This document shows positions 56,801-59,800 of a stretch of 64,000 bases of DNA, piece by piece. This DNA comes from Ruditapes philippinarum. Taxonomy: Eukaryota. Position 1 is the stretch's first letter, and every line of letters begins with the position of its first letter. The position numbers and the translations under genes are program-made. The stretch lies in contig NW_026865263.1 in assembly GCF_026571515.1 (NCBI RefSeq), forward strand, positions 62,001 through 126,000. Direction: 5' to 3'. Under the pieces are notes generated by a model. That model worked only from the letters and a program-made list of their open reading frames with translations, had not been told where the DNA came from and did not search any database.

Positions 56801-59800
56801 ACAAACATACATTAACGGTGAATGGCCTTAAGGAATTTATGTTTGCCAGTAAATTGCTATAAAATGAACTATCGTACGCAAGCAATGAAGCACAAGTTAA
56901 ATGCATCAATTATTACTGAATTATTATTTTACCATGTTTTAAATTATTCATTGTTAACTAACGAAATAAATTAAGAAACTGACGTTGAATTGGTCAGTGC
57001 TGCTACGAACAAATTGTATCTTTGGACAGGTATCAATGAGTGTTTTTCTGATCCTTGCGAAAATGGTGGTACATGTAATGATCTTGTCAATGAATATGAA
57101 TGTACGTGTGTTGATGGGTATGACGGAACAAACTGTGAAAACGGTAAGGGTATACGTCTATCATTATAATTGTTGTAAAGTTGTTTATCATTTTTGTTAA
57201 GGTCGTTTTGGGGAGTTTTCATATAGACATTTAGGCAAAATTAACTCGAAAATGAGAACGGTGACCCCAATTTTCCCATTTAAAATGTTTCTGTTATCAT
57301 ATTCAAATAACATGCCAAGTTTAAAGAAATTTTATTGAACAGTTTTAATTGTGCCTATATGTCTATATGAAAACTCCGGAAAACGTCTAAATCATAACAA
57401 CGACTGACCAAGAAAGATCCACTGAAATAATATATTGTGAATTTAAAATCTTTTATTTGCTATTTACTCCAGGCCAAGATATTTATATGATCAACTCTGA
57501 CACATGTAAAGCTCTTTCTTATCAAAACATGAATTAATGTTGTCCTAAACAATTTTAAAAAGATAAACATATAAGACCGTTTTATTTGATATGAATGTAA
57601 TATGATTCTAGCATTCTAACAGTATAGTGAAACTACTCTCAATTGAGCTTAGTTTATATGTATTTATTTAACATTCAAGTCAGCTTCTTGGAATCATCCA
57701 GAACTGGTGTCGTATGAGGAAAATTGGTCGTGGCCCTAGAAAGACTCAAATTCATGAGTCCTTGGTTGAAAGGCATAAACGTTAACATGTAATCCATCGC
57801 TCCCATTTCCAGTCATTTGTTGTTTTCTCCAGTTTATAATCTTATTAAATAAAAGTCCTACGAGTCTATTTTTGTTGATTTCAGTATTATACCACATTAA
57901 ATTAACTTTATAGTGGTGAGTATCCCCGCCTGTCACGCGGGAGACCGGGGTTCAATTCCCCGTCGGGGAGCCAATTTGTAGTGGGGGGTTTCCAACAATA
58001 AACACCTTGATATGTTTATATAGGTTTATTCAATAAAGAATAAAACCTGTAACAAATAAAATAAGTATAAGACATCACATTACAAAAAATATAAAACAAG
58101 ACAAATACATTTCACAAAATACATATTACAGAATATTACACAACAATTCAAATTACAATAAAAACAATTTCACAAATAAATATATACAAATTTACATACA
58201 AGGCTTTAAATAGATGAAATTCTTCAAAATAAATAAATTGAATACAAGCAGGTACGTATATTAACGTTAATATACGTACCTGATACAAGATACAATCAAG
58301 CAAGTATTTCTGTAAAGAAATAACTGATAGTTAACTAGTCTAATTTAGATCTTTTCACTTCGAAAGCGAGACAAGGAGTGGTCAGTTACCAAGAAATGTT
58401 ATATTCCAGAACCAAATCATCTAAAAATAACTTGCATACCAAAACCAATCATCCATCACTCAACTTGCAAAACCAGTTCAATCACTCATAACAAAAGGAA
58501 CAAAGACAAACATGAACACATAACACCGCAAAAGATTTGATTTGGCCTTTAAAGGAAATAACTACCGTATTTATTATAAAATGAGAACTTGGCTTAATTT
58601 AACCTTATCTACACAAAATTCATGTCATGTGCCATGATATTGATCAGTTAGAAAGATTCGTTATATTTATTGATTATCCAAAATTTTTTTCTGTATATAG
58701 ATATCAATGAATGTTTATCCAACCCTTGCAAGAATGATGGTACCTGTAAGGATCTTGTAAATGGGTACGAATGTACATGTGTTGCTGGATATGATGGAAA
58801 TAATTGTGATAATGGTATGAACATAGATAATTGCCAATTCTTTTAAAGAAATGTTTGAATTAAGACTGAAAAATATCTTAAATTCGTCGTGCTATCTTAA
58901 CTATAACTGTAGTCAAACATGTTTGGATTTTCTGATCATTGTAAGAACGGTGGTACCTGCAATGATCATATAAACGGACATGAATGTTCATGTGTTGCTG
59001 GATATTTGGCGGAATAAACAGTAAAAAATCATTGCATTAATTTTACAAGAGAAAATATGAATTGGAAATACTACGCGCTCTTATCAATTGATACGAATTT
59101 CTTTGAAATGCTTGAAAAATGTTGGTTAATCTGAGTATATGATGAGAAATAACTAAAGATGTGAACTAGATCTAGACGACTTAGATTGATTTTTCATACA
59201 TATAGAGTATAAAGTACTCCTCTTATCTATCTGAACTGTGTTAAGTAAATTTATAAAGAATACAGAAAACGTTATTTTTATTAAGTCAATACATGTACAA
59301 ATAACGACAACATAGAATTTCATATTAACTGTGACAGACATAAAAAGGTCAGTTACCTACTGACTAAAAATATGTTTTTTCGTACGTATTATAATAAACC
59401 TGCTGCAGATCTGCATTACCTCGATTATATTCATAAATATATATCTTCTTAATGCATGTATTAATGTGTATGGTTGTAGTCTTAATGGCAAAGACAAATA
59501 TCATTCTTTCATTCGTTGAGAAATAAACTTTTCATGCAAAACTTCTTATTTTAATGTGTTTCTGTCTTACCAGACATTACTGCAGTACACATTATTGACG
59601 CTTTTAAAGAAACTTTGATATATTTTGTTCAATCGGACTGTTCTTTAAGACGATTTTGACAGATGATGATTTTTGTAACATTTCTTATATTATATCTTAT
59701 GTGACGGAAATTGCATTTTAAACCTTTAGAATTTTGTTTTCATTACTCGCGAGAAATAACATCGTTTTCAGAGTATTATAAGTTTGATAATAAATTTCTT

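Follow-up and report, generated by a model that had tools for sequence, protein, structure and literature searches.

The closest described systems to the locus reported here are the over-extended strong-stop DNAs of HIV-1 and MLV (products P1-P5; PMC13191261, PMC8599865), in which, as in the clam, reverse transcriptase (RT) passes m1A58 and stops at the next blocking modification. These overruns come from in vitro and cell culture work, and according to the papers they can be neither transferred nor integrated (PMC8599865, PMC13191261), the HIV overrun being said to block both steps (PMC8599865). The clam copies differ in that they are integrated germ-line copies of Gypsy elements, apparently rescued by template switching, with a stop near position 9 of tRNA-Asp. 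Yeast Ty1 and Ty3 share with the clam a short primer-binding site (PBS) and a first plus strand that enters the tRNA and is normally not inherited; for Ty3 this first product is presented as a dead end, and it is a re-primed strand that is transferred (PMC5371799). Only about 12 nt are copied before the Ty product ends, and it remains in the particles (PMC5371799). The clam copies, by contrast, run for about 65 nt, are integrated and occupy 13 of 48 junctions of two families.

In retroviral vectors, faulty transfer of the plus strand is reported to have caused deletions, and a circle junction to have contained tRNA sequence (Pulsinelli and Temin 1991; Colicelli and Goff 1986). These clones resemble the clam copies in their mis-terminated plus strand, aberrant transfer, internal deletion and capture of cellular sequence, but are reportedly single laboratory clones with neither a census of tRNA types nor a modification signature. 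A strong-stop-DNA hypothesis for the origin of tRNA-derived SINEs, reportedly put forward in 1993 by Ohshima and the Okada group, also has tRNA-CCA joined to the reverse complement of U5, whereas the clam copies are 5'-truncated and single, with no sign of independent amplification; in place of the amplified head-body-tail unit with a shared 5' end that marks such a SINE, every junction is unique. Signatures like those in the clam are known from tRNA sequencing, where m1A9 appears as T and m1A58 as T or G in the products of two RTs (PMC11770116) and RT arrests one base before m1A (PMC4787781); in the clam, however, the signatures would have been written in vivo by a retrotransposon RT and fixed in the genome. 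Finally, Helenus (TRIMp3; Kojima 2024, PMC10886601) is a bivalve LTR element that contains tRNA sequence, in this case a sense tRNA-like promoter inside a short LTR. Our copy lies outside its 637-bp LTR, antisense to the element and continuous with the PBS. The ingredients are known singly, namely in vitro overruns, RT signatures from tRNA sequencing and, reportedly, faulty vector transfer; the phenomenon in the clam is real and recurrent, and varies a process already known. A literature search that reached few subscription or older papers turned up no description of overruns that are integrated and that record, tRNA type by tRNA type, the modifications of the primer.

The copy was found in a 64,000-nucleotide stretch of Ruditapes philippinarum contig NW_026865263.1 (positions 62,001 to 126,000), called the window below. 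Positions 57909..57970 of its plus strand are bases T11 to G73 of tRNA-Asp(GTC), which on the element strand read as primer cDNA. A preliminary description had reported a near-perfect tRNA-Asp without its first 10 nt; the truncation is as stated, and the match to genomic tRNA-Asp(GTC) genes is in fact perfect (62/62). The CCA of the mature tRNA follows (57971..57973, plus strand), equal to the TGG that opens the PBS on the minus strand, and then the 3-nt spacer between LTR end and PBS (57974..57976, minus strand; ATT on the plus strand), as in all 5' LTRs of the element family, here called family A, and the reverse complement of the LTR end. The minus strand reads AATAAA, a GT-rich stretch and ...CCACTACA-AAT-TGG, just as first described. 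Twelve nucleotides (57962..57973, minus strand) equal the normal short PBS of family A, defined by a tRNA match of at most 13 nt in 25 of the 33 family-A junctions examined, and 57909-57961 beyond them are the overrun. Its last matched base is 11, with no misread; A58 is correctly read, the B box is intact and the first A box bases are absent. Rfam gives a tRNA match at 57908-57962 with 32.7 bits, ARAGORN calls no tRNA gene at the copy, and compared with a tRNA gene it lacks the full cloverleaf and the T-run terminator and carries a CCA.

The adjoining LTR (57977..58613, minus strand) is complete, with the ends TGTAG...CTACA and with AATAAA and a GT-rich tract near the LTR end, and it starts with the same TGTAG as the 3' LTRs behind the PPT in sister elements. 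It is about 94-95% identical to its nearest copies (gaps excluded). The downstream sequence, whose uniqueness would have spoken against the preliminary reading, is a dispersed repeat with at least 45 matches (40 of 414 candidates scored), and its family has a tRNA-Asp PBS. Sister elements contain a TG...CA LTR pair, PPT, PBS and 4-bp TSD, a gag of the PNMA type and the Pfam order RVT_1, RT_RNaseH, Integrase_H2C2, rve; from these features, with the order RT-RNase H-integrase, we assign family A to Ty3/Gypsy. A 34-bp perfect palindrome (58249-58282) with a flanking 7-bp duplication (together 58242..58289) is inserted in the window LTR and absent from the 39 others among 40 LTRs; it resembles the footprint of a transposon or a mini-insertion.

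An intron (57144-58700) flanked by two EGF-repeat exons of 114 nt (57030..57143 and 58701..58814, both plus strand, predicted from AG/GT borders and translation) holds the insertion in antisense orientation, in line with the preliminary placement in an EGF intron. At least 11 EGF-repeat exons of one gene occupy 52592-61371 of the window, and 58928-59005 is an EGF-exon copy without a clean open frame. The same intron holds a MITE-like element with 41-nt arms (57204-57385); elsewhere in the window are a fold-back element with 22-nt repeats (33524-34607), a 58-nt tandem array (61415-61868) and a 390-bp repeat present as an inverted pair (29352-29741 with 56422-56805).

An exact T-loop-to-CCA search of the genome gave 12 places, all of which adjoin an LTR end (8 of family A, 4 of the unrelated family B). 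The search without the A58 requirement gave 14 Asp copies and generic patterns two further variants, so that the tRNA-LTR chimera first noticed in the window is one of 16. Every one of the 16 CCA-bearing copies adjoins an LTR end, of two Gypsy families and one Helenus-like LTR, and neither the exact nor the A58-free genome search returned a CCA-bearing Asp copy away from LTRs. The generic pattern gave 100 matches, most of which were set aside uncounted by their sequence as two repeat families (4 opened); six singletons that were opened appeared to be SINE-type repeats or chance matches and were also not counted, and one A58-variant match (C13517), with a tRNA that is unassigned, was left out.

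At the exact family-A junctions (33 of 34 read; the 34th is not among the long matches of the A58-free search), the tRNA match is at most 13 nt in 25, 18 nt in one and 52-72 nt in seven. In family B it is 13 nt at 8 of 14 junctions and long at six. Overruns are thus common among integrated copies of these two tRNA-Asp-primed families (7/34 and 6/14 junctions, together the 13/48 given above). The window carries an LTR from its PPT-defined start, a PBS and further tRNA complement in register over a 65-nt match. This whole Gypsy LTR with a 65-nt copy of mature tRNA-Asp is likely an over-extended plus-strand strong-stop DNA; we consider an overrun origin very probable. Judged from the sequences, the template was a mature RNA, given the CCA, the spliced junction in copies of tRNA-Lys and misreads at 9 and 58.

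Fifteen of the 16 Asp copies are long, the other (C5465) being a canonical 18-nt copy with its last match at base 59. The last matching base is 10 in six (C67, C1462, C3551, C4795, C5339, C6089), 9 in four (C10288, C13420, C12402, C12132), 11 in two (the window copy and C3098), and 12, 16 and 24 in one each. With 10 of 15 long copies ending at 9 or 10 (P 6e-12 for a uniform end point; P 2e-10 allowing any 2-base window), the earlier proposal that RT copied about 65 nt of the primer tRNA and stopped at 9/10 gains support across the genome. Scattered matches of C12132 to bases 1-8 (5/8) were not taken for read-through. The C6089 copy (L114, G000:C6089:102940-103010) shows a cluster of about 10 mismatches in the anticodon arm and variable loop, which may reflect age, a variant tRNA or error-prone copying. 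Both it and C12132 (L197) adjoin pieces of family-B LTR, the last 125-140 bp only with nearly the same start, that are possibly R-U5 of minus-strand strong-stop length.

Ends at 10 and 9 and clear misreads with read-through are what a stop at m1A9 would leave. In two copies (C3551, C4795) T stands in place of A9 and the match resumes beyond it over bases 8-4, with letters that are supplied neither by five reference interiors nor by the LTR landing site. Among the 10 copies that reach G10, the base opposite 9 is A in five, G in one and T, the correct base, in four. The landing site accounts for this base in C5339, C1462, C12402 and probably C67, and the 'G' of C1462 and 'A' of C5339 were rejected as misreads since it supplies both; this leaves only C3551 and C4795 as unambiguous A9 misreads. 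Of the three Trm10 loci in the genome one is closest to TRMT10A, one has a single exon and is presumably TRMT10C-like, and the third has one exon 100% identical to a Ruditapes philippinarum protein annotated TRMT10B-like. In humans TRMT10B converts A9 of tRNA-Asp almost completely to m1A9 (PMC7293042; PMC10275265), and zebrafish Asp-GTC also has m1A9 (bioRxiv 2024.01.30.575011); our data would predict this modification on an invertebrate tRNA-Asp as well. On this evidence m1A9 in the clam tRNA-Asp is the cause of the stop that we think reasonably likely.

One alternative keeps the overrun origin and lets the end be set by tRNA structure (the U8-A14 core and the 5' acceptor strand) or by microhomology trimming. 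A structural barrier at position 9 is noted in PMC11770116; base 1 is reached by no copy of any tRNA, and the ends at 11, 12 and 16 coincide with microhomology. The two copies of tRNA-His have C at 9, where no m1R9 is possible, and end at 7 and 8, which argues against m1A9 as the sole cause; the tRNA structure close to the 5' end, or trimming there, may contribute to the clustering. On the other hand, they pass 9 without error. Six Asp copies have their last match exactly at G10 and two have A9 changed to T followed by correct read-through, and we regard an end set by structure or trimming instead of m1A9 as unlikely.

Of the 15 long Asp copies, 14 have A58 correctly read, but A58 was a requirement of the main search pattern. 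The A58-free search found one copy with A58 changed to T and one 18-nt stop, indicating that A58 of tRNA-Asp is not simply unmodified. No statement that tRNA-Asp is without m1A58 was found in the literature searched, which shows only that this modification differs between tissues.

For tRNA-Lys(TTT), 272 sites match at least 16 nt, and all 31 that were examined end at 16-19 nt, 24 of them at exactly 18. At least 5 of the 272 are overruns, of which three end at 36-37 and one near 46, and the fifth continues into the 5' half of tRNA-Lys(CTT). In four of them A37 stands next to A38, the spliced form of intron-bearing genes, and the five read A58 as A, A, A, T and G; the three that end at 36-37 contain the spliced junction and account for one A, the T and the G. 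The minor HIV product P5 likewise stops at 37, which there is ms2t6A37 (PMC13191261). Differences in PBS length and RT family, and Helenus copies that are not independent, confound the comparison of Asp with Lys (13/48 vs at least 5/272), and Fisher's test (p 2e-8) is not relied on for the same lack of independence between copies. Two overruns on tRNA-Ile(AAT) (L193 in C5526, L194 in C11261) both end at 35, beside the expected inosine 34. The next letter in L193 is G, as inosine 34 would read, and the landing site also supplies G. The tRNA-Lys(TTT) genes L214-L221 have a 19-nt intron after base 37.

The window copy itself is a fragment, neither a full element nor a classical solo LTR; no second LTR or element interior lies within the 64-kb window, and no TSD or host duplication was found at the insertion. 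When the left flank was used to look for an empty allele, no second genomic copy except an old repeat was found, and the reads and contigs of 4 runs over 58540-59300, with 58618-58670 uncovered, contained no empty-site junction. The copy could be what is left, at the 5' end, of a two-LTR chimera that later lost its interior, its 3' LTR and the flank. The missing TSD would fit such a history, as would its end at 11 instead of 10 and the fact that 10 of the 16 sister copies are complete integrants. A later deletion, however, would not be expected to break just 1 nt away from the modal RT end; C13420, which ends at 9, and C12132 share the one-LTR anatomy, and the window is free of internal sequence. 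We consider a later deletion improbable and lean towards one-ended integration with repair at the tRNA end, on account of the position of the break and of the two other copies with the same anatomy.

Behind the tRNA copy the junctions are diverse. In C5339 and C67 it joins the LTR end again, with a second, normal PBS, and in C1462 it joins the leader just behind the PBS; deep interior sites follow it in C1535, C4795, C9157, C10288, C14130 and C3098, inverted pieces in C3551, C6089 and C12402, and host-like DNA in the window, C13420 and C12132. Microhomology of 2-5 nt is present at five of the junctions (C5339, C1462, C3098, C14130, C12402). Both outer LTR ends and a 4-bp TSD are found in 10 of the 16 copies, C3098, C6089 and C5465 among them, and several of the integrants have LTR pairs 96-100% identical, with deletions that begin right at the end of the tRNA copy. 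Near-identical LTR pairs in TSD-bounded copies place the rearrangement during reverse transcription, before integration. In C3551 (L109) the tRNA copy is followed by a 1.4-kb fold-back and inverted interior, as several template switches in one integrant would give.

The preliminary description had left open, besides the tRNA/strong-stop chimera, an element with an abnormally long PBS, and it is the chimera that is favoured. A master element with an inherited 65-nt PBS could have spread and its copies been deleted later, and C5339, C67 and C1462, which keep a near-normal interior behind the long copy, could be transcribed. Against this, the copies lie on three unrelated LTR types and every junction is different. 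In a tree of 40 family-A LTRs (leaving out C67, C9157 and C5465) 6 changes are required for the 6 chimeric LTRs and their union in one clade is rejected (p-AU 0.0001), the LTRs of C3551 and C4795 falling on opposite sides of a 100/100 split. Different junctions each time and the rejection of one clade do not fit an inherited long PBS; with LTR pairs up to 99-100% identical and deletions starting at the copy's end, such a master element is very improbable and largely refuted. The best reading is that overrun plus strands were rescued by microhomology template switching.

Among gene-type tRNA-Asp copies (30 loci searched) none has a CCA, and they have the full 5' strand, A at 9 and a 3' end of G/A plus T-run, apart from L073, a duplicated gene that lost bases 1-8 by a small deletion; the preliminary doubt that the CCA might belong by chance to a normal 3' flank is not borne out by this comparison. 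An L1-type retroposed tRNA pseudogene, or a broken tRNA gene beside an LTR by chance, has next to nothing to recommend it, since 5'-broken gene-type copies do exist (L073, L225, L227) but in 16/16 copies the CCA is exactly in line with the PBS and spacer of the family, with no poly(A) or gene-like trailer, and gene-type copies are without CCA.

Taken as a whole, an overrun that stalled near a methylated A9 and was joined to host DNA is the explanation in which we have good confidence. The order of events that we infer would be as follows. Family A primes on tRNA-Asp via a 12-13-nt PBS, and plus-strand synthesis from the PPT would copy U3-R-U5 and enter the primer tRNA. If A58 of clam tRNA-Asp is often unmethylated, the plus strand would read on until m1A9; 15 integrated copies carry tRNA far past the PBS, ending mostly at 9-10. 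With a PBS of 12-13 nt any longer copy leaves an unpaired 3' end, which would switch template by 2-5-nt microhomology onto minus-strand DNA, as the junctions suggest. Landing at the LTR end would give a second PBS; landing may also occur just behind the PBS, or deep in gag/pol, where it would give a deletion. Synthesis would finish after the switch, and the 10 products with both LTR ends and a 4-bp TSD were formed pre-integration. In the window there would have been no switch: the U3 end presumably integrated normally, and the tRNA end, with one base trimmed, would have been joined to intron DNA by host repair.

It is likely that the genome holds a fossil readout of tRNA chemistry, in which RT overran its primer and stalled or misread at a methylated base. 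This would be in vivo, heritable evidence in the long debate on whether modifications of the primer act as the RT stop, and rescue of overruns is a source of internally deleted elements. A more general proposal, which we make tentatively, is that Gypsy elements act as natural tRNA-seq recorders where the primer is weakly methylated at A58: overruns would be a main by-product, accounting for as many as one to two fifths of the 5' junctions, and through their rescue into integrants the stops and misreads on germ-line tRNAs (m1A9, m1A58, t6A37, perhaps I34) would be fixed at base resolution. Should this be true, tRNA modifications could be read from any eukaryote assembly, and primer switching would be accounted for in the same way, as would non-autonomous elements with internal deletions. 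For primer switching, the mechanism of which is called unknown in PMC10886601, it offers a testable path.

Two overruns sit on Helenus-like LTRs. In one of them (L188, G000:C8751:32550-32615) the 3' half of tRNA-Lys(TTT) is followed by the 5' half of tRNA-Lys(CTT), with the crossover within bases 35-41; this hybrid, found once in the genome, probably arose when synthesis changed from one tRNA template to another at the modified base 37. One TSD-bounded Gypsy integrant (L189, G000:C10551:60920 and 61894) carries two Lys overruns about 970 bp apart, both ending at 37; the first and second differ at A58, one having G there and the other T, and the second is preceded by no more than about 22 bp of LTR end. 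In the other Helenus-like case (L196, G000:C12402:2300-2420), the LTR belongs to a family with a Lys PBS, and next to it stands a tRNA-Asp copy that reaches base 9 and has a changed base 73; the copy then joins an inverted piece of another element, making this locus a candidate fossil of a primer switch.
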